From an uncultured Thermoprotei archaeon (GTDB taxonomy: Archaea > Thermoproteota > Thermoprotei > Thermofilales > B15-G2): DNA of 64,000 nt. The notes beneath the pieces are model-generated. The model was given only the letters and a program-made list of their open reading frames with translations. It was not told the DNA's origin and did not search any database. Location: NCBI GenBank assembly GCA_965367815.1, contig CBDUKN010000006.1, positions 41,391-105,390 on the forward strand, given 5' to 3'. The position numbers and the translations under genes are program-made. Below are positions 14,118 through 33,918 of this stretch, in pieces. The first letter of the stretch is position 1. The number at the start of each line of letters is the position of its first letter.

Positions 14118-14921
14118 TTACTCTTTAACAATATGAAAAATACACTTATCGTCTCCAGCACTAAGACACTCTACTTCCTCTACTCTGTACCTCGATTTAA
14201 GTCCTCCCTCTAAATATCCTGCAAGATAGCCTCTAGTCCAGTGACAAGACGGCTCTCCCTCTTTTCTACAACATATTGCCTCGAAATTGTCTAGTATTTC
14301 AATATAGTATTCTCTAGGCTCAATTTCCTCGATTTTAAAAACATAGCCGCGCCCCGTAAACATCCATATAGCCGAAAATCTCTTTAGCACATCTACTTCA
14401 CTAAAAAACTTCACTCTCTTAGCTGCATCGAGTTCAGCTAAAGTAAGACCCCATGTTCTACCAAGCAGAAAAAGTAGAGCTTTTCCCTCGTCTCCCCACC
14501 GCTCTTTAATAACAGCCATACCTTTACTAAAATGTTCTGCATCAAAAAGTACAGCTCTCCTCAAAGTACCGTGGTATACTAGAGGAAAAACTCTCGAAAA
14601 CCTTACTTCGGGATCAGCCCTTTTAACATAGTACTCTACTTTAATTACTTCGGGTAGAGAATCTATTTCGTCAGCAGCCTTCTCGACTGACTTAAAGCTT
14701 TCAACGAGCTCAGCTATAATAAATAGAGGCCTAAAGCCTTTAACAGCGACTCCGGTGCCTATTTCTTCTGCCTCTATACCATTTTCGCACAGCTTCTCAA
14801 TGACTTTAGGTAGTGCTCGAGATAAGTCAGTTACGAGAACAATAAGCTCGACAAAAGTTTTTCCTGGAGCATAGACATAGCCGAAAACTTCTCTAGCATA
14901 AATGTCTTTAACTCTGTGCAT
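14118..14921 (-). CDS. ACT-like + V4R domain protein
   Basis: C-terminal V4R signature NFE..C...SCHWTRGYLAG...VEEVECLSAGDDKCIF. Confidence 0.8.
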   Translation of the reverse strand: MHRVKDIYAREVFGYVYAPGKTFVELIVLVTDLSRALPKVIEKLCENGIEAEEIGTGVAVKGFRPLFIIAELVESFKSVEKAADEIDSLPEVIKVEYYVKRADPEVRFSRVFPLVYHGTLRRAVLFDAEHFSKGMAVIKERWGDEGKALLFLLGRTWGLTLAELDAAKRVKFFSEVDVLKRFSAIWMFTGRGYVFKIEEIEPREYYIEILDNFEAICCRKEGEPSCHWTRGYLAGYLEGGLKSRYRVEEVECLSAGDDKCIFHIVKE

Positions 14922-15253
14922 ACGTGTACAAAAAGAACCAGCGCATATATACCTTTTTATTTTAACTGAAATAAATAGTGTTCAATATTTCAGGAAACCA
15001 TAAAAACATTTTTATTCTTTTTTATTCTTTTCTCTAATACCCCTTAAATAAAATCTAAGCGATACACTATATATTTCCGAAAAAATCAACAAATACTCAA
15101 AAAACAGTCACTTTTATAGCTGTTCAACTTATATTTACTTTGCGTAAAAATATTAACTAAATTATTATTTTTACTCAATTTTTCCCTTAAAATCAGGCTC
15201 AGTTCCACTTCACTAGGTAAGTATTTTAAAGGAAAGGCTGATAGTAGTACTGT

Positions 15254-16369
15254 ATGTCTGAAGTATATCTTATCAAGTTTACTAGGCATACTCACAACAT
15301 ATTAAAGTACACTAGAATACTTCTCGAAGCTACTAACTTCAAAAATAATCTGAAAGAAGGAGAGCTAGTTGCAGTAAAACTGCATTTCGGCGAACGAGGA
15401 AATATGCGTCATCCAAGACCCCAAATAGTTAAAGCTATAGTAGACTACATTAAAGAAAATGGAGCACTCCCGTTTTTAACAGACACTACCACTCTTTACT
15501 CGGGGTACAGGCGAAACGCTGTTGAGTACTTAGAGACAGCTGCTATTAACGGCTTTACAATAGGGACTGTTGATGCGCCGGTAATAATTGCCGACGGTCT
15601 CCTTGGAAGAGACTACAGAGAAGTAAAAACTCCCGGTGAACTAGGATCCGTTGCAGTAGCTTCAGCTATTGCTGAAGCAGACGCTATGGTAGTTTTATCG
15701 CACTTTAAGTTCCACGTGTCATTTGGCTTCGGAGGAGCATTAAAAAACCTAGCTATGGGCTGCGTTGCCCGTAAAACTAAATTTGATATGCACGCTGTAG
15801 CTAAGCCAGAAATCATACCGGAGCGCTGTATTGGCTGTGGACTTTGTGCAAGACACTGTGCATGGGGCGCTATCTCTATTAAAGAAGGAAAAGCAGTCAT
15901 AGATTACAGCAAGTGTGTTGGCTGTGGAGACTGCGTTGCTATATGTAGGCAGAAAGCCGTCCGCATGCCCTGGGGTACAGGTGAACACGTAGAGAAAATG
16001 CTTAAGAGAGCAGCTGAAGCCGTATGTGGTGTTTTAAAAACATTTGATAAAAATAAAGTACTTTACATAAACTTACTTGTGGAAATAACTAGACTATGTG
16101 ACTGCGCTACTTCACTTGAGCCCCCAGTAGTAGTTGACATAGGTATGCTCGCTTCCTATGACCCCGTGGCAATAGACCAGGCTTCGCTCGATTTAGTCAA
16201 TAATGCTCCAGGATACTATTTCAAAGAAGACGGGTCTTTAGAAAAAATAGAAGCAGGCGTAGATAAAGTAAAGTTCTTCTTCCCTGAAGTAAAGTACTGG
16301 ATACTACTAGAAGAAGCAGAAAAAATGGGAATAGGTCAAAGAAAGTACAAATTAATTAGGCTAGGATAG
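15254..16369 (+). CDS. DUF362 Fe-S protein with inserted 2x[4Fe-4S] ferredoxin
   Basis: VKLHFGE, HFKFH..FGGALKN, CIGCGLCARHC, CVGCGDCVAIC, CDC, DPVAIDQA. Confidence 0.9.
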   Translation: MSEVYLIKFTRHTHNILKYTRILLEATNFKNNLKEGELVAVKLHFGERGNMRHPRPQIVKAIVDYIKENGALPFLTDTTTLYSGYRRNAVEYLETAAINGFTIGTVDAPVIIADGLLGRDYREVKTPGELGSVAVASAIAEADAMVVLSHFKFHVSFGFGGALKNLAMGCVARKTKFDMHAVAKPEIIPERCIGCGLCARHCAWGAISIKEGKAVIDYSKCVGCGDCVAICRQKAVRMPWGTGEHVEKMLKRAAEAVCGVLKTFDKNKVLYINLLVEITRLCDCATSLEPPVVVDIGMLASYDPVAIDQASLDLVNNAPGYYFKEDGSLEKIEAGVDKVKFFFPEVKYWILLEEAEKMGIGQRKYKLIRLG

Positions 16370-16630
16370 CGCTGTTTCTTTAAGCCATGTTTCCAGCTTT
16401 TCTCTCTTAAAAACGTATTTATGTTTAAGTGAAGTAGCTTTAAGCTGCTTAGCTAGCTCCTTTAAAGCTCGAGAAAAACATATGACTTCACGTTTACTTG
16501 TTTTCCTCCCTCCATAATATCGTCTCAAGTCTTTTGAACTTAAAGTAACAATACCTCCTTTTGTTTGAGAAAGCTTTTTCTCAGCAACTATCCTCACCAG
16601 CCTAAACCCCTCAGCCATCCATCTATCCAT
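16361..16630 (-). CDS. Small basic hypothetical protein (possible DNA-binding)
   Basis: Lys/Arg-rich 89 aa ORF with RBS-like GAGGGG upstream. Confidence 0.55.
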   Translation of the reverse strand: MDRWMAEGFRLVRIVAEKKLSQTKGGIVTLSSKDLRRYYGGRKTSKREVICFSRALKELAKQLKATSLKHKYVFKREKLETWLKETALS

Positions 16631-16790
16631 TAACTTCCCCTCAAAACACTTTTAGTAACTATACTCATAGGGAATTTAAGCCTTTTGTCCGGCAGTCCTA
16701 CTATTAATTGAATAATTAACAAAATAAAAATTTTTCGTATTCAAAAAAGACCAGACTATATTTGTTTATAAAAATAGATAATTTGATAAT

Positions 16791-16961
16791 TTAACCCATC
16801 ATTAGGCCTCTTCTTTCAGTTCTAGAGTAAAGCTCTCTATTAAGTAGATCTCTTACAGCGACGCGAATCGCTTCACTGCGACTAGGATAGCGTCCTCCCT
16901 CAACAAGTTTTTCGAGACCCTGAACAAGATGGTCGGGAAGGTGTACTGTTATTAGCCGCAT
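16791..16961 (-). CDS. Small RHH (CopG/Arc/MetJ, CdrS-like) regulator
   Basis: MRLITVHLP...LVEGGRYPSRSEAIRVAVRDLL; start probably ATG 16961. Confidence 0.85.
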   Translation of the reverse strand: MRLITVHLPDHLVQGLEKLVEGGRYPSRSEAIRVAVRDLLNRELYSRTERRGLMMG

Positions 16962-20389: not shown

Positions 20390-20793
20390 CGTTAACCATA
20401 TTCTCTTCACCCAGTCTATTTTATCGTACTCAGAGTCTTCTGAAGCAATAAACATAATGTTGTTTCTTTCATAGCTCCTAAGTGTAGTGCATCTGAAGGC
20501 TTTATATTGTAATCAGATAATATTTTTGCCACTTCAATGTATTCATCCTCTCCTAACTTTAGTATATTCACATAGGGTAGTATGGATGATTTGATAAAAC
20601 TTAAAGATATTCGATAAGGTATCTTATATTTTTTCCTAGATACATATACTAGTTCATTCGATACTAGTACATCTGTATAAGCTTTATATTTTCTCAATAT
20701 ATTGAAATAAAAGTTATCATATATTAGTCTTATCGTATTATCTGTAATAGTATTTAAGTATATAAACAGATTAGCATTAATAAATACTTTCAT
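20390..20793 (-). pseudogene. VapC PIN toxin, decayed
   Basis: MKVFINAN (catalytic Asp lost), PSDALH; frameshift at ~20465, and the alternative frame continues NNIMFIASEDSEYDKIDWVKRIWL. Confidence 0.75.
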
Positions 20794-21052
20794 TCAAACT
20801 CCTCCTCTAAATGAATTCCTGCAAGCTCGCCCGGCTTAAGTTCTCTCCTATTTTGAATATTTTTATGAGCTCTACATGTTTTTTGAGAGCCTCCCGAAGT
20901 TTTTCAATATCCACTTTTCTAATAGGCTTAAGTAAAATACAATCCTTGATTTCAACAATCAGTTCATCTCCCTCTTCAATACCCACAGCCTCACGAACCG
21001 CTTTGGGAAGAATAACATAACCCTTTTTACCAACCTTTATTTTCAGTGTCAA
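20790..21052 (-). pseudogene. AbrB/VapB antitoxin with late frameshift
   Basis: IKVGKKGYVILPKAVREAVGIEEGDEL; alternative frame after the A-run gives ...KPGELAGIHLEEEFE* overlapping the toxin ATG. Confidence 0.7.
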
Positions 21053-21769
21053 ACCAATTTCACCTACAGTTAAACTGAAGTTAATCTATATAAACTTTTT
21101 CTATTAAAATAGTTGTTTGCACTAACAATAATTTAAATTTATTTAGTTTATCTTCATTTCACAACTACTAAAATAACTCTATTTGTTTTTAGAATAGTTT
21201 AGCAATAACTATATAGTTTTAGGCCTTAATTGAGCCAACTCTGCAGAAAATCCAGCGTCTTTTCTCCTAAACTCATCTAAAATTACTTTAGTCCTACCTT
21301 TACTGAAAAATATATCCACCCAATTTCTTTCTTAAAAATTCTTTAGGCAGATTTAGCTTATTTCCTTTAGTCCTCAGAACATGTAGTACCTTTATCACAG
21401 CTTCTTTACTTAACTTTATGACAAATAATGAATAAAAATAGATTAAATTATTGTAGTGAATAACTTAATGGCTTACTTTAGCTATTATTACTAAAATACA
21501 ATTACTTTCATAAAGATTTTACTTTCATGTCGGAGAAACTTTATAGAAAAAGAATATCTAAGAAAATTCTGCTTTAAAATTTAATAGAAATTATCTTATA
21601 TAAAAATAAAACAAATAGTTAAGCATATACTGCAAGCTAGTTATATAACTTTGTTAAATACTAACACTAAAAATACATGTACTTGAAATCTTTTTACGTA
21701 TTCTACAATACAAGTACAGCATTTTGAGAAAATGAGTTAAGAATATATTTCATCACATGTATCTGAATT

Positions 21770-22015
21770 ATGTCTCAAGCTAGCATAATAAATTTATTAT
21801 CTGAGCTAGAGAAATGGCTGCGAAATAAACTACACAATGTTAAATGCCCTGCATGCGGACACATAATAGTCTCAAATCATCCTCCTCAGTGGGTTAACGA
21901 GCATTTACCACATATAACAGTAGGAGAAGAAGAAATTTCAGTAAGCTATAGATGCAAAAAGGGAGGCCTTATAGAAATCTGTAGACTTCCTAGAACAGTT
22001 GAAGAAAAAATTTAG
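21770..22015 (+). CDS. Small Cys-containing (Zn-ribbon-like) hypothetical protein
   Basis: CPACGH...C...C in 81 aa. Confidence 0.55.
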   Translation: MSQASIINLLSELEKWLRNKLHNVKCPACGHIIVSNHPPQWVNEHLPHITVGEEEISVSYRCKKGGLIEICRLPRTVEEKI

Positions 22016-22351
22016 TGGAAATACTACAAGAATATTTGAATAGTTTAAGATAGTTTTATTTAGATAAATATATCACCTAGAATACTAGTTCTATCAATTT
22101 TACTTCAATAGCATCTCTGTTTCTGAGAAAACTGATGCTTAAAGGGCATCTGTATACTATATTCAGTAACTTTAAGGAATCAACATTACGTCGCATGTTG
22201 CTAAACTACCTAACTTTCTTCTATGATTTCATCGAAGAAAAATAGAGCTTATTGGCCATAGCAGTATTAAGCGGTAAATTATTTTGAAATAATGATTTTG
22301 AATTTATTTTATTCAAGAAAACTATAAATTCTTGTATGTATCATTTGATGC

Positions 22352-23098
22352 GTGAAGATGCGTGAATTTGATTTAGCTAGAGTACTTAAATATCTTTATT
22401 CTGCACGGGAAGCTTGTTATGAAATACTATTACATGTTAAGGATGAGTCTACTACTTATGGTGAATTGAGAGAACCTTTAGAAAAAATAAGCCTTTATTT
22501 GAGCCCGCTCGAAGGATTACATAGAGTAGTAGACGAAATAATTAGTGAAGTACGAGACTATATTGAATTGTATAAGCTGAGAATTTTTGAGAAAGTTAGT
22601 CCCGAAGATATGAAGCTCTTAGCAGAGTCTGCTAAAATATGGGAAGAGAAAGTAAGATTCCTGATAGATAATATAGATGCTATAATTGGCTCTAAACAAG
22701 TTTTCACGCCGCCGCAGCCTCCTGCTACCGTAACTAGGCCTGTTTCAGCAAGCCTCATATGTGAAGACACAGGTGAGAAAGTACGTATATCAGATTACTG
22801 TATTATTGGGAGAGACCCCTATACAAATAAGGTAACAGTGTATGATAGCAGAGGTAGAATTCTCTACCAGTTAAATAAAGTTGATAGATATGTCACTAGG
22901 TACAATCCCCGTATAGGCAAGTACGGCCATGCTATTTTACTCTATGAAGAAAACAAAGGGTGGCTTATTGAAGACGAGTACAGCACTAATGGAACCTATT
23001 TAAATGGAAAACTTATACCGCCTAAAGCTAGAGTAAAGCTTAGAAACGGAGACATTATAGAAATAGGCTCAACAAAATTCAAGTTCATACTCTACTAA
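22352..23098 (+). CDS. Helical N-domain + Pro linker + FHA domain protein
   Basis: IIGRD...VTR...GHA...IEDEYSTNGTYLNG...LRNGDIIEIG is the FHA signature. Confidence 0.88.
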   Translation: MKMREFDLARVLKYLYSAREACYEILLHVKDESTTYGELREPLEKISLYLSPLEGLHRVVDEIISEVRDYIELYKLRIFEKVSPEDMKLLAESAKIWEEKVRFLIDNIDAIIGSKQVFTPPQPPATVTRPVSASLICEDTGEKVRISDYCIIGRDPYTNKVTVYDSRGRILYQLNKVDRYVTRYNPRIGKYGHAILLYEENKGWLIEDEYSTNGTYLNGKLIPPKARVKLRNGDIIEIGSTKFKFILY

Positions 23099-23187
23099 TC
23101 TATCTATTCAAATCTTTTAGAGTCACACAAATTTACCTTACTAAACTTATATGAAATCTCAAGTTTTAAACAAGTGCGGTAACTTAT

Positions 23188-23715
23188 TTACACATTGTTG
23201 CAGAAACTTTCAGTTGATTTAAGTTTTTTAAGTCTTTCTAGTTTTAGAGTTTTGTTTTGTAGCTCATTTTCTATTTTTTCTAGCTGTTTTAATAATTTAT
23301 TTTTCTCTTCTCCCTTAGCTTTACTTAATTTATTTAGTAATATGCTTTTAAGCTGTTCTAATGTCTTAATATCTTCTTCAATTAGTTTTATTTCAGCTGA
23401 AATATAGGGCTTTACAGAAAACCGTATTTGAGAATATTTTGCCAATAATTTGGCTAGTTCTTGTTCAAGTTCCCTTCTAATAATTGTTTTATAGCTTGTA
23501 GGTGCTTGCTGAATTATTTCAGTTAATTTCTTACTTAGCGCTGTTTTCTCTTGAGGAGTTAATGTTTCTCCTTTAATTAGTTTGTTTACTGCTTCAGTTA
23601 ACTGAGGATATATTAGTTGCGCTAGTAGAGCGTAATAAAGTCCGCGGGCAGTTTCTACTCCTAGTGTTTGCACTATTGTCTTAGCTACTTTCATCCAGTC
23701 GATGTTTCCGCTCAT
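23188..23715 (-). CDS. Hypothetical helical/coiled-coil protein (paralog of 28167..28730)
   Basis: W.KVAK.I...LG.E.ARGLYYA.....YP.L motif shared with 28167..28730; C-terminal coiled coil. Confidence 0.75.
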   Translation of the reverse strand: MSGNIDWMKVAKTIVQTLGVETARGLYYALLAQLIYPQLTEAVNKLIKGETLTPQEKTALSKKLTEIIQQAPTSYKTIIRRELEQELAKLLAKYSQIRFSVKPYISAEIKLIEEDIKTLEQLKSILLNKLSKAKGEEKNKLLKQLEKIENELQNKTLKLERLKKLKSTESFCNNV

Positions 23716-23768
23716 ATTCTGTACCTCATACTTAATGTTTTCTTATAAGAGTTTGTTTCTATTTTAGT

Positions 23769-25418
23769 TTACTCTAGGTCTTTTAGTAGTTTTTCAGCTT
23801 CATCGAGCAGTTTCTGTACTTGTTCGAGTTGTTTTAAGTACTCTTCTCTGCTTATTTCTCCTTTCTCATATTTCTCTCTGAGCTCTCGGGCTTTTCTAGC
23901 AGATTCGAGTATTAGAAGTCTCAGAGCCTTTCTTACTTCTTCTCTAGAGACTGTTTTCTTTTCTTTTACCCCTTTAAGTAGCTCAGATACAAGAGCTAAG
24001 ACGACTGCGCTTGTGGCTGTAGTGAGTGCTGTTAATCCTATTGTTTTGAGTATTTCGTCTTTTGTTTCTTTTTCAATAGTCTTTCTTTTAGCTAAAGCAA
24101 CTAAATGCTCTTTTTCCTCATCAAGGTACTTGAAGGCGTTTTCAATATTTATTAGGCCGTATCCTTGAGAATACTTATCGTAGCCTAAGTCGACAGCTGA
24201 TTTTATGAGCACTTCTTTTACTATAAAAGGTGTTTGTTTACCGTAGTCGAGCCCCCTTTCTTTCATGTACTGTAGTACTAGTGCGCATGCTCCAGCTACA
24301 TGTGGTGTAGCCATGCTTGTTCCCTGTAGCGACAAATAGTGTGGTTCTACTAAGAGGTCTAAGTCTAGGTAATTTCTGAGGATTTCTGGATCTATTGTAG
24401 TTGAGCGCGCAGAGACTATTCCCTCGAACTTGTTTACTACTCTACCCTCTTCTTTCACCATGTAGCCTCCCGGAGCAACTACTTCAGGCTTCACTTCGCC
24501 TTTAGGTGAAGGCCCTCTACTGCTGTAGGGGGCTATTTTCTTGTGTTTGTCTACTGCGCCTACTGTTATAGCGTTACTTGCTATGCCGGGACACTCTATC
24601 GTGCCTTTGGCTGGACCAGAGTTTCCTGCTGCTACGCAGAATATTTTGCCGTATTTTTCTGTAATAGTGTCTACTGCCTCTACTAGCAGAGATTCGTAGT
24701 CTCCTGGGCCTCCTAGACTTAAATTGAATATGTCAGCTCCTTTGTCGAGAGCCCATTCTATAGCGGCTACTACGTCGTCTTCGTAGCCGTAGCCCTGTGT
24801 GTCGAGACACTTAGCATTAATTACTGTAGAGTCTGGTGCTACACCTCGGTAAATGCTTCCTGCTCCAGCAGCTATGCCTGCTACATGCGTTCCGTGTCCG
24901 TTGTAGTCTAGCGGATCTTCCTCTGAAACAAAGCTTTCTGAAGCAGCTACTCTTCCCTTTAAGTCAGGGTGAGAAGAATCTACTCCTGTGTCTATTATCG
25001 CTATTGCTACTCCTTTTCCGGTGAAGCCTGCTCGCCAAGCATAGTCGCCGGCAATCATTGGTACAGAAACGTTTAGGCAGGTTCTAACTCTATGTACTCT
25101 ATGTACTTTAGTGAAAGGAACTTCGATTACTCCTTTAATAATGTCTAGTAGGTGTTTAGCTGGGAGCTCTGCGCTAAAAGCACTTACTGTTTTATAGATA
25201 TGTCTAGGCTTCAAATTAAGTGTCTCTACTAAACTCTGCTTTACTCCTATTCCTTCGAGTATAGAAAAAGCTTTAGATAGATTCTTGAAAGCAGAATACA
25301 GAGCTTCAGGAGGCACTGTTTTAGTCCAGAAAACAGCGTTTATTGGCTCAAAGGGATTTCTTGAAACTACTTCGCTGAGAATTTTTTCAAGTCCTTTAGC
25401 TACAAACATTGCCTCCAC
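23769..25418 (-). CDS. S8 subtilisin-like serine protease with N-terminal prodomain and C-terminal hydrophobic helix + helical tail
   Basis: IIDTG, GHGTHVAG, AAGNSG, GTSMATP catalytic motifs; no signal peptide. Confidence 0.93.
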   Translation of the reverse strand: MEAMFVAKGLEKILSEVVSRNPFEPINAVFWTKTVPPEALYSAFKNLSKAFSILEGIGVKQSLVETLNLKPRHIYKTVSAFSAELPAKHLLDIIKGVIEVPFTKVHRVHRVRTCLNVSVPMIAGDYAWRAGFTGKGVAIAIIDTGVDSSHPDLKGRVAASESFVSEEDPLDYNGHGTHVAGIAAGAGSIYRGVAPDSTVINAKCLDTQGYGYEDDVVAAIEWALDKGADIFNLSLGGPGDYESLLVEAVDTITEKYGKIFCVAAGNSGPAKGTIECPGIASNAITVGAVDKHKKIAPYSSRGPSPKGEVKPEVVAPGGYMVKEEGRVVNKFEGIVSARSTTIDPEILRNYLDLDLLVEPHYLSLQGTSMATPHVAGACALVLQYMKERGLDYGKQTPFIVKEVLIKSAVDLGYDKYSQGYGLINIENAFKYLDEEKEHLVALAKRKTIEKETKDEILKTIGLTALTTATSAVVLALVSELLKGVKEKKTVSREEVRKALRLLILESARKARELREKYEKGEISREEYLKQLEQVQKLLDEAEKLLKDLE

Positions 25419-25713
25419 CTAAAGCTCGTACTCTGCCAACTAAAGACACTTTTATTACAGCGCTATGTGAAGCTATCTTAGGTATTAGCGAAACTCTAGT
25501 TTCCACCGAAACAACGGGCTTGAATTTGTATCGATGGAGAACTCTACAGCCCAAATTCTCAAGAAAACTCAAGACAATTTCTTCGCATCCCTCAGCGCAG
25601 TATACGAATACTTTTACTTCGCTATCTTTTTCCCCCTGTTTCCAAGACTCAAGTATCTGAATTAAACTGGAGTCGAGTTTCGATAAGTAGTCTTCAGACA
25701 CCACAGTACTCAC
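25396..25713 (-). CDS. Stand-alone subtilase propeptide / I9-like inhibitor
   Basis: SKLD..L, VKVFV, VLHRYKFKPVVSVE, IPKIASHSAVIKVSLVGRVRA. This is the beta-alpha-beta pattern of S8 prodomains; it overlaps the S8 gene start. Confidence 0.65.
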   Translation of the reverse strand: MSTVVSEDYLSKLDSSLIQILESWKQGEKDSEVKVFVYCAEGCEEIVLSFLENLGCRVLHRYKFKPVVSVETRVSLIPKIASHSAVIKVSLVGRVRALGGGNVCS

Positions 25714-25808
25714 TAAGCATTGTAGTTAATATACTTCGCGATAGAATAGTTTAGTGCCAATAATTTGGGTAAATTACTTTAAGGAAAACGAGTCTTAATC
25801 AAACTCTA

Positions 25809-27971
25809 CTAAGTAAACATACGCGTTAATTCTTCTCTTATTTTCTCGTAGCGCTCTAGGTCTTCGGGCTTAAGACTAGGCTTAACTACTTTCATTGCTT
25901 TTTCAAAGTGCCTCATATGTACTTTAGTAGGTTTGCCTGCTTCTCTTAACGCTGTCATTGCTGCTTCTCGGCATAAGGCGGCTAAGTCGGCGCCGCTATA
26001 TAATTCTGTTCGCTCGGCTATTTTCTTTAAGTCGACATCTTCTGCTAAAGGCATTCTCCTAGTATGTACTTTCAGTATTTCGTAGCGGGCTTCAAGGTCT
26101 GGTGGAGGAACATATATTAGTCTGTCGAAGCGACCGGGCCTTAGGAGAGCTGGGTCTATTATGTCGAGGCGGTTAGTTGCCGCCAATACTACTATTCCCT
26201 CTAGTTTCTCTATTCCGTCCATTTCTGTTAAAAGCTGGTTAACTATTCTATCGGTGACGCCTGAGTCGAATCTAGTGCCTCTTCTAGGCGCTATAGCGTC
26301 TATTTCGTCGAAAAATATTATGCAGGGAGCTACTTGTCTGGCTCTAGCGAATATTTCTCTGACTGCTTTTTCGCTTTCACCTACCCACTTGCTTAGAATC
26401 TCGGGGCCTTTAACTGAAATAAAGTTTGCTCCGCTTTCTGTTGCAGCTGCTTTAGCCAATAGTGTTTTACCGCAGCCTGGCGGCCCGTAGAGTAGTACTC
26501 CTTTGGGAGGATCTATGCCCATTTCCTTGAAGAACTCCGGGTGCTTAATAGGCCACTCGACAGCCTCTCTTACCATCTGCTTTGCTTCTTTAAGCCCGCC
26601 TATGTTCTCCCAGTGTACTTCAGGTACTTCGACGTATACTTCTCTCATAGCTGTAGGCTGAATATCTTTGAGTGCCTCCATGAAATCCCTTCGAGTGACT
26701 TCTATTTCCTCTAAAACTTCTGGAGGTATTTCGCCTTTACTGAAATTTATTTTAGGCAGAACTCTCCTTAGAGCATTCATTGCTGCTTCTCGACACAGTG
26801 CAGCAAGGTCTGCTCCCGTATATCCGTGAGTAAGTGCCGCAATTTCGTCGAGATCTACATCTTTTGCTAGAGGCATGTTTCTCGTATGTATAGCTAGTAT
26901 TTCTCTACGCGCTTTTTTGTCAGGTACCGGAAAGAATATTTCTCGATCAAATCTACCAGGTCTCCTGAGCGCTGGATCTACATCATTTATTCTATTTGTA
27001 GTAGCTATCACTACTACTTGTTCTGCTTCCTCAAGCCCGTCCATTAATGTCAATAGCTGAGCTACAATTCTTCTTTCAACTTCGCCTACTTCTTCTCTCT
27101 TAGGCGCTATAGCATCTATTTCATCAATAAATATTATAGCAGGAGCGTTCTCTTTTGCTGCCTTAAATATTTCTCTGAGTCTAGCTTCGCTTTCACCATA
27201 GTACTTGCTTACGATCTCCGGACCATTTATAGCTATAAAGTAGGCGCCAGACTCATTTGCCACAGCTTTAGCTAAAAGGGTTTTACCTGTTCCAGGCGGC
27301 CCGTAAAACAGTACACCTTTAGGCGGCTGTACACCGAGACGCTTAAATACTTCGGGGTATCTTAAGGGAAACTCCACCATTTCTCTTACTTTGCACTTTA
27401 CTTCCTCCAAGCCTCCTATATCTTCGTAAGTGACTTTAGGTATAGTGAGCTCAAGTTGTTCCGGCTTCCTGCGGATAATGACTTCAGTTACATCACTTAT
27501 CTGAACTACTCCTGGAGGAGCTGTGCTGACTACAATAAACTTAAGAGAAGTTCTAAGTAAGGGTACTTCAATAATACTTCCCCGACAAAGAGGTGTAGCT
27601 TTAAGCCTAGATTTAACGTAGTCTACGAATTCTCTTGAAATATCTTCAAGAGACGCCTCAAGAGGCGCTAAAACAATTCTTTTAGCGCGATCTACTTTAA
27701 CCGCTTTTCTAATTTTAATTACTTCACCTAAACTTATTTCAGCGCTTTTTCTCAGCAATGCATCTATTCTAATAATACCCTGCCCCCAGTCTTCAGGATA
27801 AGGCGACGCTACAGTAGCTACAGTACTCTTTTTGCCTTCTATTTCAACAACATCTCCCACAGATAATCCAAGAAGACTCATTACTTTACCGTCTATCCTA
27901 GCAATGCTTTTGCCAACATCCCATGGTTTAGCCTCAGCAACCTTTAAAGTCACTTCACGAACTAAACTCAT
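25809..27971 (-). CDS. cdc48: Cdc48/VCP-family AAA+ ATPase
   Basis: N-domain ([16 protein letters not shown]), D1 [23 protein letters not shown]2 [22 protein letters not shown]. Confidence 0.97.
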
Positions 27972-28166
27972 TAATTAAATTAACTGTTAATAGTTAATTA
28001 GTTTTCTCATAAAAAGATAGTACACAAAGTTCAATATACTTTCAGATACTTTAATGAAAAATATTTGTATAGAATAGTATTTTTAAAAGAAATCGATTAA
28101 AGAATAGCTCTTATTTCTTCACGCAAAATTTATTAGCATTTAGACTACATTTACTTACTGATAATT

Positions 28167-28730
28167 ATGAGTGAAGAAATTCCATGGGATAAAGTCGCAA
28201 AAGAAATCATTAAAATTTTAGGCACAGAAAGCGCGAGAGGACTCTACTATGCTTTCATCTACCACTCGCTTTACCCTATGCTAGTTAACATAATTTCTCA
28301 AAAAGTCAGAGGAGGAAGTAGAGTAGATGAAAAAGAGCTTATCGAGGCTGTTAGACAGGAAGTAAGAAAACTTCAGCAGACAGTAGAACCTCAGCCCGTC
28401 CAGCCAGCTGTAAGTGAAGATGAGCTAGCTAAGAAAATAGCTCAGATACTAAGACAAATGACTATTACTGCACAGCAGCCTCAAGTAGCTCAAGTTCATA
28501 CCATAGTTTCACGGTCTTCTCAGCAGCCAGCAGCTCTACCTGAGCTAAAAATGATTGAAGGTGAGATCAAAGCTCTCGAAGAAGCTAGAATAGAGTTAAA
28601 GAAAATGGCTTTACTTGAATTCAATGAAGAAAAACTCAAGAAAATTAACGAGAGATTAACTCAAATAGAACAGCGTCTAAGAGAACTGTATGCTCAAAAA
28701 GCCTACTTGACAGCTACCCAAAAGAAATAG
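28167..28730 (+). CDS. Hypothetical helical/coiled-coil protein with Q/P-rich linker (paralog of 23188..23715)
   Basis: 22/39 identical N-terminal residues to 23188..23715 by manual alignment. Confidence 0.78.
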   Translation: MSEEIPWDKVAKEIIKILGTESARGLYYAFIYHSLYPMLVNIISQKVRGGSRVDEKELIEAVRQEVRKLQQTVEPQPVQPAVSEDELAKKIAQILRQMTITAQQPQVAQVHTIVSRSSQQPAALPELKMIEGEIKALEEARIELKKMALLEFNEEKLKKINERLTQIEQRLRELYAQKAYLTATQKK

Positions 28731-28897
28731 CTAGAATTCTTAAGTAAAAGCCCGCACTAGAAGCTACTCAATTTTATTTAACTTAAGTGCTTGAGAGAAA
28801 TATTAAGCTAATAGCTGAAGTAAAGAGAAAGGATCTTTGGCTACTGGAAAAAGAATTTAAGTAAACTAAAGTATTCTTGAAATAGGGGGACGGTACT

Positions 28898-29305
28898 TTG
28901 AGTGAAAAGTGGGCTATTTTAGCTCCATTTATACTTGGCTTAATTCTCGGCAAGAAATCTCAAGTAGTTGAAGCTGAAGTTCCCCCTCGCATAGTGTATT
29001 TCCCTCTAGAAGAAAAAAGTGATACATTCAGTGAAATTTCTTTAGATGAGATAAAGAATCTACTAAAAGACATTGCTTCTAAAAGCGGATTAAAGCTTAA
29101 TGAAAATGATTTAGAGATATTAGCAAATAAAACTAAATATTACTTAGATTTATATAGAGAAAAAGCATACTGTTTGAAAATGATTAGAGACCTTTCTAAA
29201 GCATTTATGGAAAGACGAATATCTAGTTCTCTATACACTTCGCTTGTAAGAATATATAAACAAAGGCTCATTGAAATAGAATTGAAGTTAAGTAAGATCA
29301 GCTAA
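28898..29305 (+). CDS. Hypothetical protein, N-terminal hydrophobic helix and C-terminal helical hairpin
   Basis: WAILAPFILGLILGKK; TTG start with GGGGGA RBS. Confidence 0.7.
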   Translation: MSEKWAILAPFILGLILGKKSQVVEAEVPPRIVYFPLEEKSDTFSEISLDEIKNLLKDIASKSGLKLNENDLEILANKTKYYLDLYREKAYCLKMIRDLSKAFMERRISSSLYTSLVRIYKQRLIEIELKLSKIS

Positions 29306-29314
29306 GGTGAAAAA

Positions 29315-31252
29315 TTGTACAGAAGATCGCCTATTAGTACTGCAGTCGAATACTATAGGAAGCTTAAAGAAACGGAGTTTATTGAAGTGCTGTCTGCTGA
29401 AGAACTTAAAGCTAATTATAGCAGAAAAGATTTAGTAAAGTATATCGATTTTCTGTCAAAACTCCGTAGCGAAGTACTCTCAGCAGACCTATATCCACAC
29501 CACCGCAAAGATATCTTAGCCAAAATAGATAGAAGACTAAGTAAACTAAAAGTAGTTCTAAGCGGAGGCAAAGAAACTCCAATGCTGGAAATTCTAATTG
29601 AAGCAGATAAAAGTGAAGTATTTGAAGAGGAAGTAGCAAAAATATCGTGTCTGCTTGTAAACAACTATTTTAGAGAAGCTAAAGTAATATTGAGCTTAGA
29701 GGGAGTCGGAGTATCTTTTCCAAAAGGCAGGAGCTACACTGTATATCTTGCTTCAGGCGAAAAATACTCACTAGAAATACCTGCTGTAGCCGAGAAAACA
29801 GGAGAAGCTACTATAGGACCTATTGTAGCTGAAGCAACTTTCTCTGACGGCAAAAGAATTAACGTAAAGTCAAAGCTACTTAAGATTAAGGTTAAGCCGT
29901 ATAGACCTATGCTTGAAGTAGTGCGTAGAGTTAAGTCTAAAAACATTATAGAAGGAAAACCAGCTGAAGTAGAAATTATTCTTCGTAATGTAGGTACAAC
30001 TGCTCTTGGCGTAAGTGTAGTAGAACCTATAGAAGGTATGAAAATTGAAGGCGAGTACAAGTGGAGAGGTGTACTCAAGCCCGGCGAAGAAAAAGTACTT
30101 AAGTATAAGATATACTTGCCCTCTGGTTCACATACACTACCTTCAACTAAAGTAATATACAGAGATCCTCGAGGAAGCACTTGGGAGAAACTGCTTAAAG
30201 AAGAAGTAATTGAAGTAAAGCCTATTGAAGCGGAGAAAACAGACTATAACTCTCTCATAGACCTATTTTTCAAAAGTGCTTTTTCAGCAGGATTAGGCTA
30301 TTTAGTAGGAAAATATATTGTAGGGAAAAAGCTTCCCGAGATAAAGAAGTACTCTAAGCCAGTTTTTATTCAAGGAAACATACCTTGGAAGAAAATTGAG
30401 GTTAAAGGACAAGAAGTAACAATTATATTTGAACATCCTATAGCGACTGTTACAGAAGATAGAGGTAGCTATATTGCATTAAGGCCGGCTACTCTAGAAG
30501 AAATATTATTGGCTACAGATATCCACTTAGCCAGAACACTTCAGCTAGAATTCTGTACAAAAGTTGAAAACATTTTTAAGTACTGGAGACCCAGACTAGG
30601 GGGAGAAGTTAATTTAAGTTATAAGAGAATAGATTTATCTAAGGAAGAAAAAGAAGCTATTAGAAAAGAATTAGAAGCAAAAAGAGAAGTTATTAATGAA
30701 AAGAAATTAAGTATGCTTCCCGAAAACACTCTACTAGAATTTATTTATTACATGGGAGGCTTTTTCCGGAAAAAAGAGTTCGCCATATATGTGCTTACTT
30801 ACTCTAGACTTAAAAAACTCTTTTACAATGAAATAGACCACAAGCCTCTAGCTAAAGCTGAAGCCCTTAAGGCTATAGAGAAGAGAATTAGAAAAGATAT
30901 AGAGTATGTACTCATATTAGCTTCTCCTACTGGCTGGGATCAGAAAAGTATAGAGGAAGTAGAGTCATTTATTCTACCTAACTCTCACATACTTCTAGTA
31001 GATCTCAAGACTGGTGAAGTATACTTTAATAAAAACGACCCTATTGCCTGTGAAATAGCCTCACTTATAGCTAAAGAAACTACAGGTCTTCCACCTATAC
31101 CTAAAGAAGCTAGAAAAGAATTCGATAAACTCACAGAAATGCTTGTTAAAGGAGAAATAAACGAAAAAGAATATTTAAATAAAATATTAGAGCTTCTAGG
31201 AGTTAAAATAAAAGTTAAAGAAAAAGCTAGCAGAGCTAGCTTTTTGCTCTAA
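29315..31252 (+). CDS. Multidomain protein: helical N-terminus, two Ig-like (CARDB/BatD-like) domains, hydrophobic helix, alpha/beta domain, SHOCT-like tail
   Basis: VEIILRNVG...GVLKPGEEKVLKY...LPSTKVIYRD Ig-like pattern; FSAGLGYLVG helix; GEINEKEY tail. Confidence 0.7.
   Translation: MYRRSPISTAVEYYRKLKETEFIEVLSAEELKANYSRKDLVKYIDFLSKLRSEVLSADLYPHHRKDILAKIDRRLSKLKVVLSGGKETPMLEILIEADKSEVFEEEVAKISCLLVNNYFREAKVILSLEGVGVSFPKGRSYTVYLASGEKYSLEIPAVAEKTGEATIGPIVAEATFSDGKRINVKSKLLKIKVKPYRPMLEVVRRVKSKNIIEGKPAEVEIILRNVGTTALGVSVVEPIEGMKIEGEYKWRGVLKPGEEKVLKYKIYLPSGSHTLPSTKVIYRDPRGSTWEKLLKEEVIEVKPIEAEKTDYNSLIDLFFKSAFSAGLGYLVGKYIVGKKLPEIKKYSKPVFIQGNIPWKKIEVKGQEVTIIFEHPIATVTEDRGSYIALRPATLEEILLATDIHLARTLQLEFCTKVENIFKYWRPRLGGEVNLSYKRIDLSKEEKEAIRKELEAKREVINEKKLSMLPENTLLEFIYYMGGFFRKKEFAIYVLTYSRLKKLFYNEIDHKPLAKAEALKAIEKRIRKDIEYVLILASPTGWDQKSIEEVESFILPNSHILLVDLKTGEVYFNKNDPIACEIASLIAKETTGLPPIPKEARKEFDKLTEMLVKGEINEKEYLNKILELLGVKIKVKEKASRASFLL
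31221..31245. terminator. 11-bp perfect inverted repeat at convergent gene ends
   Basis: AAAAAGCTAGC-AGA-GCTAGCTTTTT, with a T-tract on both strands. Confidence 0.5.
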
Positions 31253-31611
31253 TGACTGCTCCTAATACTCCTCCTACAAGCCCTATTAGAGCTCCTTTGA
31301 GCGAAAGAACGACTACTAGTAAAGCTAATCCTATTCCAGCATGAGGTGCATAGGGAGCTAGAGGAGGAATTACTATTGTTAAGAGAAACGGGGAAAAGAA
31401 TTGCTACTAGTGTTGCGAGAATAAGACTTCCAAGTATACCCGCTAAGAAGCCTGCAAGAGCACCTCTACCCATTCCGCCTCCAGCTATAAAGCCTGCAAT
31501 AAGCCCTGCTATGAAGTCTCCTATAAGCGGTAAAGGACCACTTAATACTGCGTGTAGAATAAAGCCAACTATTACTCCAAGCAAAAAGTTGCCTTTTGTG
31601 GTGGTCATCAC
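31236..31611 (-). pseudogene. DUF5518-like Gly-rich membrane protein, frameshifted
   Basis: PLIGDFIAGLIAGFIAGGG...; after a frameshift at ~31385 the other frame gives LTIVIPPLAP...ALIGLVGGVLGAVIRAKS*. Confidence 0.65.
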
Positions 31612-31986: not shown

Positions 31987-32743
31987 ATGAAAGGAATTAG
32001 AGTAGTGTTTAGGAGCCCTCATGCATCTCATGTGACAGTGAGTGCAGAGAAAGTGTTTTTCTGTGCCAGAAGACTTAAGTCTCGAGGAGGCATCGTTTTT
32101 TGCTTTAGGAGCAATATGTTTACAAGGCGTTAGAAAAGCGGGAGTTGAGATAGGTGAATCTGCTTTAGTTATAGGATTAGGGCTTGTCGGCCAGCTTACG
32201 GTTCAGCTTTTAAAACTTAGTGGTGCTATGCCTGTAATAGGGCTAGACCTATATGAGGGAAGACTTAAGTTAGCGAGAAAATTGGGAGCAGATTATGTTT
32301 TTAATCCTTCTAAAGTAGACGTCGAAAAAGAGATCCTTAGGTTAACCGAAGGTAAAGGAGCTTCGCTCACAATAGAGGCTTCCGGTAGCCCCGAAGCTGT
32401 AAATCTAGCATTCAGGCTTACGAGAAAGTTAGGTAGAGTAGTTTTGCTTGGGAGTAGTAGAGGCGAGACTACTGTAGATTTCTATAGAGATATTCATAGG
32501 AAAGGGCTTCATGTAATAGGGGCACACGTGTCTACAGTGCCTGAAGTAGAATCTTTTAGATACTACTGGACTCTCAAGGACGAGATAAAAACGTTCTTTA
32601 AGCTTCTTAAAATGAGAAGCCTCAATGTTAAGGACCTTATATCAGTTAAGTTAAGTTTCAAAGACGCGGGTGAAGCTTACGAGTTGCTGAGAAAAGAAAA
32701 AGACAGAGTTATAGGAGTCCTCTTGGACTGGACTAGTGCCTAA
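31987..32743 (+). pseudogene. Zinc-binding MDR dehydrogenase with internal deletion and frameshift
   Basis: ATG 31987 MKGIRVVFRSP joins directly to HASHVTV, so most of the GroES domain is missing; frameshift at ~32050; GLGLVG Rossmann motif downstream. Confidence 0.75.
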
Positions 32744-32831: not shown

Positions 32832-33068
32832 TTGATTGCTATTGGTCGAGTGGGCTCGAAAGGAGAGCTTTTTCCTCCTAAAGAAATTAGAGAAAAGTTA
32901 GGTCTCAGACCTCACATGAAGGTAATTTATAGAGTTGAGAAAGGGAGGCTTATTGTTGGGCCTATTCCAAGTATAGAAGATGTCCTTAAGGAGCCTTGCG
33001 AAGTAGAAATAACTTTAGAAGGGTTTCATAGGTTTAGGAAAAAGCTTTCACATGAAGCTGAATCATGA
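32832..33068 (+). CDS. AbrB/VapB antitoxin
   Basis: GRVGSKGELFPPKEIREKLGL. Confidence 0.8.
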   Translation: MIAIGRVGSKGELFPPKEIREKLGLRPHMKVIYRVEKGRLIVGPIPSIEDVLKEPCEVEITLEGFHRFRKKLSHEAES

Positions 33069-33540
33069 AAATCTTGCTAGATACGACCTACTTTTTACCT
33101 GTAACAGGAATTTCTGTAAAGAATTTTCCGGTAATATTGTTGTAGATTTAATAAACGAAAAGTGTACCATTTTGATGAGCGAAATTACTCTCCTTGAAAT
33201 TTTAGCTAAGGGAGCTAAATATGTTGCATCGAGTCTTCTTAGAGCTGAAAGAGTAATTAAAGGTATAAGGTCTCTTTTATATGATGATAGAGTTCATAAG
33301 ATCCCTATACACGATACTTATGTGCTACTGACTGCTTTAGAACTAAGAAAACTGCTGAACGACTTCATAGACTGTCTTATTCTTTCAGCAACCATAAATT
33401 ATGCTAATATTCTATTGACAGGAGACGAAGATATTCACAGGCTACTAGGTAATGAAAAATTCTTGGAAATAGTTCAAGAAATAAACCCAGAGTTTAAAAT
33501 AATGTGTTATAGTGAACTCGAAAAGATTTTAAGTGAATAG
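33065..33540 (+). pseudogene. VapC PIN toxin, frameshifted near N-terminus
   Basis: ATG 33065 gives MKILLDTTYFLP...; the frame shifts at ~33130 into the annotated frame containing SEITLLE and DFIDCLILSA. Confidence 0.75.
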
Positions 33541-33627: not shown

Positions 33628-33918
33628 GTGTTATATGTGTTGTCAAAAGAACCTATTGATTTAAGTAAAGTGAGTAAAGAAGACGTTGATAAAGAAATTT
33701 TGCGGCTAGGTATTATTGCTGAATTAGACGCTATTAGTCTTTATGAGCAGCTAGCAGCTATGACGAGTAATGAGAAAATAAAGAAAGTTCTCCTTGATAT
33801 TGCTAAAGAAGAAAAAACTCATGTAGGGGAGTTCTTAGCCTTACTACTTAAACTTGATGAAGAACAAGCTAGAGAGCTCGAGGAGGGGCGCAAGGAAGTA
33901 GAAGAAATTACCGGATAA
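33628..33918 (+). CDS. Ferritin-like protein (encapsulated-ferritin/Flp type)
   Basis: ILRLGIIAELDAISLYEQ...DIAKEEKTHVGEF...DEEQ. Confidence 0.85.
   Translation: MLYVLSKEPIDLSKVSKEDVDKEILRLGIIAELDAISLYEQLAAMTSNEKIKKVLLDIAKEEKTHVGEFLALLLKLDEEQARELEEGRKEVEEITG

Follow-up and report, generated by a model that had tools for sequence, protein, structure and literature searches.

In the passages of PMC13069673 that treat it, IetAS is described as a serine protease toxin paired with an ATPase antitoxin, which can acquire extra modules. The archaeal ESCRT variants Halo_FHA, Halo_adaptin and Meth_adaptin, as portrayed in passages of Makarova et al. 2024 (PMC11188069), combine a Vps4-like ATPase (Cdc48/Vps4 lineage) bearing a VAT-type N domain with an upstream PspA-like gene and Ig-like adaptin domains, and FHA, kinases and Zn-ribbon or SPFH proteins are also present. 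For the SHOCT/PSP assemblies, passages of Ravi et al. 2024 (PMC11237479) predict an anchoring role for SHOCT-like domains, by which disparate domains are placed at the inner face of the membrane; there, unlike proteins share a bihelical SHOCT-like module, and Zn-ribbon and Band-7 partners recur. Here we describe a gene cluster at positions 21770-31252 of a 64,000-nucleotide stretch of DNA (hereafter the window; contig CBDUKN010000006.1, positions 41,391 to 105,390) from an uncultured Thermoprotei archaeon, which resembles each of these in part. The reading that we favour, and to which we give about an even chance of being right, is that the cluster is a reduced form, peculiar to one genus, of a larger gene system of heat-loving, Thermofilales-like Thermoproteota, which is patchy in its distribution and seems to be undescribed. 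The constant core of that system is a pair of proteins, p645 and p135. No paper describing this gene combination was found, although the supplementary tables of PMC11188069 and PMC11237479 might list its families; the 10 listed papers, of 49 on Thermofilum, Cdc48 and subtilisin, included nothing of relevance.

A preliminary description of the window had listed nine intact open reading frames (ORFs), and all nine are present and open. Two on the plus strand encode an 81-aa Zn-ribbon protein (21770-22015) and a 248-aa FHA protein (22352-23098). They are followed on the minus strand by helA (175 aa, 23188-23715), an S8 subtilase (549 aa, 23769-25418), a small ORF named I9a with resemblance to subtilisin prosegments (105 aa, 25396-25713) and cdc48 (720 aa, 25809-27971). 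Across a divergent intergenic region of 195 nt, as calculated from the ORF coordinates (27972-28166), the plus strand carries helA' (187 aa, with a P/Q-rich linker, 28167-28730), p135 (135 aa, 28898-29305) and the hallmark gene p645 (645 aa, 29315-31252). Between helA' and p135, a 167-nt gap (28731-28897) takes the position held in close relatives by a further gene, p141, which is deleted in the window. The Cdc48, S8 and FHA assignments made earlier each score above the curated cut-off (Pfam, or TIGR01243 of NCBIfam), and the remaining ORFs have no match to a characterised pathway in Pfam, NCBIfam or PADLOC. The left edge is AT-rich, in agreement with the spacers described there (GC 0.28 over 21001-22000).

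Compared with IetAS (IteAS), the cluster likewise has an AAA+ gene next to an S8 gene, a patchy distribution and a protease that is probably restrained by a partner, whereas p645, p135, helA and the prosegment-like protein have no counterpart in IetAS, and most relatives of the cluster have S8 without the ATPase. In contrast to the ESCRT variants, no ESCRT-III, PspA or CdvA homologue was detected here and the ATPase is optional (two of the 13 lineages defined below), while S8, the prosegment-like protein, HD-CE and the C-terminal domain of p645 do not occur in the passages of PMC11188069 in question. With the SHOCT/PSP assemblies, the cluster has no more than the logic of the tails in common; they differ by PspA, PspC, Toastrack and LiaF, all of which are missing here, by a tail that in our proteins lies below the Pfam cut-off, and by lineage, which in our case is archaeal.

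The p645-p135 core and its distribution

A word-index search with p645 returned two close relatives only, while an exhaustive profile search gave about two dozen full-length representatives at 50% clustering, together with many others that matched in the Ig region only. Three genome loci were obtained in a search for related loci with a six-row alignment, and a metagenome scan gave 43 loci. In total, 55 loci were pooled; their ORFs were called by a simple longest-ORF rule, families were built by BLASTP with single linkage, and lineages were delimited at 70% identity of p645, which reduced the 55 loci to 13 lineages. The gene for p645 is present in 50 of the 55 loci. Alongside it, p135 was found in 43 loci, in 26 of the 27 loci of at least 8 kb and in 11 lineages, the two lineages devoid of it being short contigs. 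Within the class, 9 of 120 genomes and 5 of 73 high-quality genomes hold the p645 family, and none of 73 pattern matches in viral contigs was a relative of p645.

This core is usually joined by an HD-CE phosphohydrolase (PF24391; 26 of the 55 loci, 20 of the 27 loci of at least 8 kb, 7 of the 13 lineages) and by Zn-ribbon-tagged Ser/Thr kinases and ankyrin proteins. The merged cluster of Zn-ribbon-bearing proteins occurs in 38 loci, and among the loci of at least 8 kb, 17 have a Ser/Thr kinase and 15 an ankyrin protein. HD-CE is used here purely as a Pfam label, as the literature searches on the name returned unrelated uses and one preprint on a Calcineurin-CE defence module. In approximately 60% of the lineages, a protease module composed of a free prosegment-like protein, S8, helA and p141 joins the core. 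Its members were counted, in the same order of loci, long loci and lineages, as 22, 14 and 8 for S8, 18, 12 and 6 for helA, and 14, 10 and 6 for p141; the prosegment-like proteins form two clusters, in 8 and 4 of the 55 loci, and a 604-aa membrane protein (mem604) is found in 9. Cdc48 is far rarer (6 loci, 3 of at least 8 kb, 2 lineages), as is FHA (3 of the long loci, 2 lineages).

A typical full locus (L052) begins with an ankyrin protein tagged with a Zn ribbon, a Zn-ribbon kinase, a second such ankyrin protein, a 408-aa protein, HD-CE, a prosegment-like protein and p645, continues with p135 on the opposite strand, S8, helA, p141, a short helA and the 604-aa membrane protein, and ends with a 285-aa protein, a Zn-ribbon protein and a kinase. 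The preliminary description, confined to the window, could not extend to this larger system, to which HD-CE, the Zn-ribbon kinases and ankyrin proteins, p141 and the 604-aa membrane protein belong. The p141 protein, which has three hydrophobic (transmembrane) helices and a G-R-I-T-x-x-K-Y tail, is found in the sister species of the window's species (G001; the window genome itself is G000) and in G020 and G022, both of them complete genomes from a different family.

Whether the genes are linked elsewhere had been proposed as a check, and they are: the cluster recurs in G001, where it is split over two contigs, in G020, in G022 and in a further genome, G009. Both complete genomes hold helA, the prosegment-like protein, S8, p135, p645 and a DUF5518 gene together, and the DUF5518 gene adjoins the cluster in all four genomes first compared. 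In the window, this membrane protein (PF17647, E 4.1e-10) lies on the minus strand at 31249-31611 and is frameshifted at about 31390 relative to its relatives. As the genes are linked in other genomes, the cluster is no chance neighbourhood.

Some of the loci have companions of their own. In G009, the flank of the locus (L025:508-3324 and 14561-16812) encodes a protein of 938 aa that combines WD40, PEGA and kinase domains, a PCI-domain protein (E 1.8e-9, above the cut-off) with weak, sub-cut-off HTH matches, and another Ser/Thr kinase. A gene pair named c9 recurs in eight loci (for example L052:2-2464 and L058:2476-5308) and is absent from the window's genome; both of its products are coiled-coil proteins, one of about 300-390 aa with weak apolipoprotein/DUF948-like resemblance, the other of 513-597 aa with a weak AAA_13 match. 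On a contig of Phycisphaerae (L026:7360-16654), a protein combining HTH_17 with a domain like the p645 C-terminus is flanked by a 602-aa Zn-ribbon-FHA protein, a 684-aa Band_7/SPFH protein with Zn ribbons, partners such as also recur in the SHOCT/PSP assemblies, and a 770-aa Ser/Thr kinase. Because this bacterial locus repeats the theme, the association of Zn ribbons with phospho-signalling is not confined to archaea.

No Pfam or NCBIfam family covers p645. Its AF2 model (pLDDT 85.3) consists of a helical N-terminus (residues 1-83), two Ig-like beta-sandwich domains (91-302), a hydrophobic helix (about 314-335) that is poorly resolved in the model, an alpha/beta domain (350-590) and terminal helices with a SHOCT-like tail. 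The Ig-like character ascribed to it earlier was borne out by these sandwiches, by a Foldseek search with the full-length model, in which only Ig-type domains were matched, and by homologues that match BatD, CARDB or DUF11; a profile search against PDB returned Ig-like designs only. Among the further matches of the Ig-like region are large, repetitive proteins, the longest with 6317 residues.

Modelled alone, the C-terminal domain reached a pLDDT of 89.8 and a pTM of 0.78, and the model suggests a novel alpha/beta domain at 350-590 with conserved D508, SPTGW (537-541) and K565. Fold searches with it in PDB and BFVD gave nothing at E <= 0.001. The best Foldseek matches, AspBHI and MspJI (E 0.03-0.04, TM 0.22-0.25), the weak matches to Mrr and UL24 (E 0.05-0.1) and those to Mrr_cat rows of the Atlas (TM 0.29-0.34) are all non-significant, although proteins of the Mrr or PD-(D/E)xK type come up time and again as the best matches in the three libraries. 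Among the possible catalytic residues, conservation extends to D508 and K565 but not to D542 and D563.

Its partner p135 has a short N-terminal hydrophobic segment, a strand with a conserved VPPxI..P motif, helices and a SHOCT-like (E/G)RIS...Y motif. A complex model of p645 (residues 300-645) with p135 supports, short of proof, a binding between the two: the ipSAE was 0.65, 0.64 and 0.69 in three runs, compared with 0.00 for the best of three controls, the runs have at least 48% of contacts in common and the partner pLDDT is at least 70. In a calibration, 58 of 80 solved complexes and 2 of 110 mismatched pairs scored as high, counts that hold only roughly here because our own alignments were used for the p645-p135 model. 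In the predicted complex, the p135 strand 23-39, with the conserved VPPxI, extends the first C-terminal sheet of p645 (340-378), and the p135 helices 91-128 pack against the p645 tail (604-621), which brings the SHOCT-like helices together.

The protease module and the shared tail

The S8 protein matches Peptidase_S8 (208.9 bits against a cut-off of 21.8, E 1.3e-61), and the triad motifs, with D in IDTGVD, H in HGTHVAG and S in GTSMATPH, are intact in the translation. It has no signal peptide and no hydrophobic N-terminus, one hydrophobic helix at residues 459-477 (hydropathy 1.83), and a SHOCT-like tail, GEISREEY. Its best NCBIfam match is the mycosin of the type VII secretion system (T7SS), with an E-value of 1.3e-41, below the cut-off.

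The last of these matches bears on the possibility of a cell-surface or envelope apparatus, in which the Ig domains of p645 would be displayed outside and a mycosin-like, anchored subtilase would process envelope proteins. Mycosins are membrane-anchored by a C-terminal helix, and positive charges follow the hydrophobic helices of both p645 and S8; the matches of the Ig region to very long proteins and of p645 homologues to CARDB, BatD and DUF11 point the same way, large repetitive proteins of this type being presumably surface proteins, and the membrane proteins DUF5518, p141 and mem604 are linked to the cluster. However, p645 lacks a signal peptide and a hydrophobic N-terminus just as S8 does, its helix is not hydrophobic in some lineages, and Cdc48, FHA, the kinases, ankyrin proteins and HD-CE are partners of cytoplasmic types. 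We consider a role in the envelope very improbable.

Overlapping the start of the S8 gene by 23 nt, I9a encodes the small protein for which an I9-like identity had been put forward. The label holds at the level of a lead: Pfam is blank, while a nine-sequence profile has its best PDB matches in the prosegment of subtilisin BPN' (1spb_P, E 0.033; 3bgo_P, E 0.037) and its fifth in the subtilisin E propeptide (1scj_B, E 0.19). In the ESM Atlas, feature matches of 0.93 led to CspB_prodomain clusters and to one cluster bearing Inhibitor_I9. Homologues of the I9a family adjoin S8 or p645 in 12 loci. Like the prosegments of subtilisins, Inhibitor_I9 and the CspB prodomain, I9a aligns to the BPN' and subtilisin E prosegments over their hallmark C-terminal half, but unlike them it is a separate gene with marginal E-values, and S8 seems to keep a weakly similar segment of its own (residues 67-113 against the prosegment-like profile, hhalign E 0.0016, probability 16%). 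Judged from these marginal resemblances, I9a may be a separately encoded, putative prosegment-like chaperone or inhibitor.

The pairing of an S8 protease with an AAA ATPase had been likened to IetAS, and a toxin-antitoxin or abortive-infection system of that type, with S8 as toxin, Cdc48 as antitoxin and the other genes as accessories, would account for the partial NCBIfam and PADLOC matches to IetS and IetA, the patchy distribution and the flanking VapBC pairs. The scores, however, are far below the curated cut-offs, with 78.8 bits against 900 for the IteS equivalog and 253 bits against 510 for IteA, a single-ring ATPase of about 370 aa, where the match is confined to the D2 ring; PADLOC matches to IetS are partial only, and matches of this kind are expected from any S8 or AAA protein. 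Moreover, the ATPase is a two-ring Cdc48, six of the eight S8-bearing lineages have no ATPase, and the prosegment-like protein is a more direct candidate for the inhibitor. Membership in IetAS is not supported by these results, and an IetAS-type function of the cluster seems to us distinctly unlikely.

The paralogy of helA and helA', noted before, was recovered by BLASTP (63.9 bits, E 6e-18, 30% identity over 175 residues). The helA alignment comprises a conserved N-terminal part of about 50 residues (W..VA...LG.E.ARGL.YA), a variable P/Q-rich linker and a C-terminal, helical coiled-coil tail; helA' homologues are present in 6 of 41 related genomes. The two proteins had been imagined as membrane-associating polymers. 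Against this, neither gave a PspA_IM30 or Snf7 match with hmmscan at E up to 0.1, genome-wide searches with those families miss the locus, the middle of the protein is the variable linker, and the helA profile matches generic coiled coils only in PDB. By its sequence, helA looks like an adaptor rather than a polymer.

What the members of the core and the protease module have in common is the C-terminus: p645, p135, S8, helA and p141 share a SHOCT-like motif, which bears out the shared tail reported for the window. Defined as G-x-I-x4-[YF] within the last 80 residues, the motif was found in 39 of 51 p645 proteins, 20 of 44 p135, 7 of 25 S8 and 7 of 29 helA proteins, as opposed to 3 of 263 unclustered neighbours and none of 104 proteins of the Zn-ribbon family. 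A hidden Markov model (HMM) of p645 tails recovers helA tails, and the p141 tail carries the motif by eye. The S8 tail matches Pfam SHOCT (PF09851) with E 0.0019, and a neighbour in L025 scores 21 against a cut-off of 27. The tail is called SHOCT-like only, because the motif is enriched and the Pfam scores stay below the cut-off.

Regulators and the cluster-linked Cdc48

The 81-aa Zn-ribbon protein of the window has only weak, sub-cut-off matches to Zn-ribbon families of Pfam, and an alignment of 55 residues with the C-terminal end of an ankyrin-repeat protein from the G022 locus shows 40% identity (E 7e-11). The merged Zn-ribbon cluster is a mixed one, with ankyrin-repeat proteins tagged at the C-terminus, Ser/Thr kinases tagged at the N-terminus, larger kinases and a 388-aa Zn-ribbon protein. 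The window's protein is a stand-alone copy of the module with which ankyrin proteins and kinases are tagged elsewhere. In the FHA protein, the FHA domain (48.4 bits against a cut-off of 20.7) is C-terminal, at residues 193-239, and the N-terminal helical part is a domain specific to the system, with counterparts in two proteins that have no FHA match, one of 322 aa in L018 (E 5e-6) and one of 272 aa in L025 (E 7.6e-4). FHA homologues occur in 3 of the 50 loci with p645. The link to phosphorylation drawn from the FHA domain gains from the kinases of the related loci mentioned above. A comparable theme is the phospho-signalling by ArnA/ArnB with ArnC/ArnD in Sulfolobales, where a Zn-ribbon and FHA protein is met with Ser/Thr kinases; here, neither a vWA protein nor archaellum genes were seen, and Zn ribbon and FHA are on separate genes in the window.

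The cluster-linked Cdc48 is a complete protein, with 1119 bits for TIGR01243 (cut-off 802.65), the Pfam domains CDC48_N and CDC48_2, two AAA domains and two lids, Walker A and B motifs intact in both rings (GPPGTGKT and IIFFDE among them) and intact pore loops (KYYG, KWVG). It shares this full architecture, the Walker motifs and the aromatic pore loops with the Cdc48/VAT that works with the 20S proteasome. A C-terminal HbYX motif is a feature of proteasome-docking Cdc48. The linked copy, however, ends in ...ELTRMFT and has no HbYX; of the two Cdc48 paralogues of the order, only type B proteins end in an HbYX-like F/Y-Y/F-x, and type A proteins are without it. It also differs from the proteasomal unfoldase in being a third copy whose most diverged part is the N domain, and its gene shares an operon with a subtilase instead of lying close to those of the proteasome.

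It is not, as a refutation of the preliminary reading would have required, the sole Cdc48 of the genome: three full copies are present in G000 and three copies in G001. In 23 other genomes of the order, Cdc48 matches (E up to 1e-100) number two in 20 genomes and one in two, and a fragmented genome (G006) has three pieces. The other copies of G000 are at C18:59375-61531 (L001/L106) and C8:98099-100225 (L002). The phylogenetic comparison suggested in the preliminary description was carried out as a quick maximum likelihood (ML) tree of 32 sequences, in which five cluster-linked copies form a clade of their own (SH-aLRT 100) on a long stem (0.34), nested within type A next to family f5, while the C18 and C94 copies of the window's genus are on another long stem near the split of types A and B. 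Transfer from family f5 and duplication within the genus are both possible origins of the linked copy. Its N domain is 47.9% identical to that of type A (61.6% among type A orthologues) and its D1 77.0% (86.6%). As it is more diverged than the type A orthologues and its motifs are intact, the linked Cdc48 looks like a dedicated paralogue restricted to this genus.

The cluster might nevertheless be a chance neighbourhood, in which an ordinary housekeeping Cdc48 sits inside an unrelated accessory island with no functional tie. The linked copy is within the type A clade and has a type A-like C-terminus, and a conserved 428-aa neighbour of type A Cdc48 is present in G000 with no adjoining Cdc48; since this ancestral site is empty, the linked copy could be a relocated type A gene. 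Nonetheless, cdc48 has the same place, between I9a-S8 and helA', in six loci and in two species that have diverged to only about 54% identity in p645; the stem is long, and divergence in D1 goes beyond that of any type A pair (a maximum of 79.6% between linked and type A copies, a minimum of 81.0% among type A pairs). In addition, the C18 copy may be the native type A, because its tail, YEEMAKKLKRLIR, is almost the same as that of the basal type A of family f6. We have little faith, for these reasons, in a purely accidental association.

At the other extreme, Cdc48 was thought to be the hub of the system. A machine centred on it, an unfoldase-protease that remodels or recycles helA/helA' membrane polymers in ESCRT- or PSP-like membrane remodelling or quality control and is gated by FHA, would be in accord with a cdc48 gene that heads the I9a-S8-helA operon, is divergent from helA' and encodes a distinct, diverged clade, and with the similar parts list of the archaeal ESCRT variants in the passages of PMC11188069. 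Against a place at the centre stands its linkage in only two of the 13 lineages, both in the window's genus: G020 and G022 hold p645-p135, HD-CE, S8 and helA without it, their Cdc48 genes lying hundreds of kb from the cluster, and in these and in many metagenome loci helA occurs with S8 and p645 in the absence of any AAA ATPase. The missing PspA_IM30 and Snf7 signal of helA, its P/Q-rich centre, which is unlike the ESCRT-III hairpin, and its generic coiled-coil matches tell against the polymers as well. Such a machine is, in our judgement, unlikely.

A reduced variant, its proposed mechanism and its flanks

Returning to the favoured reading of a reduced variant of a larger system, the genes for HD-CE, p141, mem604, c9 and c10 were found nowhere in the window genome, which is 99.4% complete. 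Two close relatives (L037 and L039) retain p141, and one of them also has HD-CE and a second FHA gene. In L020, L037 and L039, p141 sits between helA' and p135; at the corresponding gap in the window, tblastn detected no p141 remnant, and contigs of three DNA runs bridge the gap without a joint. The decay of flanking genes that had been reported was only partly upheld. The DUF5518 match is split across two frames at about 31390 and an ADH-like gene (32042-32743) is frameshifted at about 32056 relative to relatives, and at both sites, 31390 (gggg) and 32056 (ttttt), one base is missing from the sequence of a near-identical strain present in four DNA runs. Both sites being homopolymers, the two frameshifts may be either real decay or errors of assembly.

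Regarding the way in which such a system might work, we propose that the SHOCT-like tails would assemble unlike proteins, namely p645, p135, S8, helA and p141, into one phospho-regulated complex, which would probably lie beneath the membrane, given the hydrophobic helices in S8, p141, DUF5518 and the 604-aa protein. Kinases, FHA and Zn-ribbon proteins would provide the input to this complex, and its output could be the subtilase, held latent by the prosegment-like protein, together with HD-CE in those loci that have it. The third, fast-evolving Cdc48 would have been inserted at the head of the prosegment-S8-helA operon in the window's genus, where its most plausible task would be to unfold the prosegment-like inhibitor or to supply the protease with substrates. 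The window's species would later have lost HD-CE and p141, with the FHA and Zn-ribbon proteins kept as the sole regulators. Because the distribution is patchy, variable and eroding, a conflict or stress response is the most likely biological role, rather than a housekeeping one.

It is tempting to go further and see here a new class of signalling-effector system, archaeal but with echoes in bacteria, in which Zn-ribbon-tagged kinases and ankyrin proteins, with FHA, would govern a SHOCT-tailed complex that has a latent intracellular subtilase and an HD hydrolase as outputs, and in one genus a dedicated Cdc48 paralogue would switch on the protease by unfolding a separately encoded prosegment; taken as a whole, we regard this as a long shot. 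If it were true, no other Cdc48 would have been dedicated before to a protease other than the proteasome. Should the favoured reading hold, the genus-specific capture of a Cdc48 paralogue beside a prosegment-like protein and a subtilase would raise the question of whether an archaeal unfoldase can activate a protease by removing an inhibitor, with a bearing on how Cdc48/p97 gained specialised clients. A conserved multi-gene system would be added to regulated proteolysis and Ser/Thr phospho-signalling in Thermoproteota, the families p645, p135, helA and p141 would be given a function, and the role of SHOCT-like tails would have a test case, as the model sets the tails of p135 and p645 together.

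Several observations weigh against the reading of a larger SHOCT-tailed system with a reduced form in the window. The raw counts overstate independence, because related samples contributed many near-duplicates to the 55 loci, and the simple ORF rule applied to them calls for caution. The prosegment evidence for I9a is marginal (E 0.03-0.19), the S8 tail remains below the SHOCT cut-off (18.4 bits against 27), and according to Eberhardt et al. (PMC3581485) first experiments did not support SHOCT as a domain for oligomerisation. How hydrophobic the p645 and p135 helices are varies from lineage to lineage, with neither reaching 1.1 in L052, which makes a membrane anchoring of this pair doubtful. 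No kinase is present in the cluster of the window, no CRISPR or restriction genes were seen beside it, and PADLOC gives a generic subtilase and partial IetS and IetA matches only. For Cdc48, the approximately unbiased (AU) test does not reject the joining of the linked and C18/C94 groups, as expected of a duplication within the genus (p 0.415), and the biological role, finally, is inferred only.

Beyond the cluster, no tRNA in the window, no viral match and no integrase among the flanking ORFs scanned was found that would indicate a mobile element or provirus. On the left, two short tblastn remnants (E ~8e-5) at 21230-21419 belong to a 229-aa gene with no Pfam family, which in the sister species is located between helA and S8 (L023:672-1361). 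VapBC-type pairs flank the cluster on both sides, the left one (20416-21052) composed of a PIN protein and a MazE/AbrB-like antitoxin and the right one (32832-33540) of a PIN protein and a small upstream ORF with no Pfam family. To the right of the second pair, at 33628-33918, follows a 96-aa protein similar to rubrerythrin or encapsulated ferritin.

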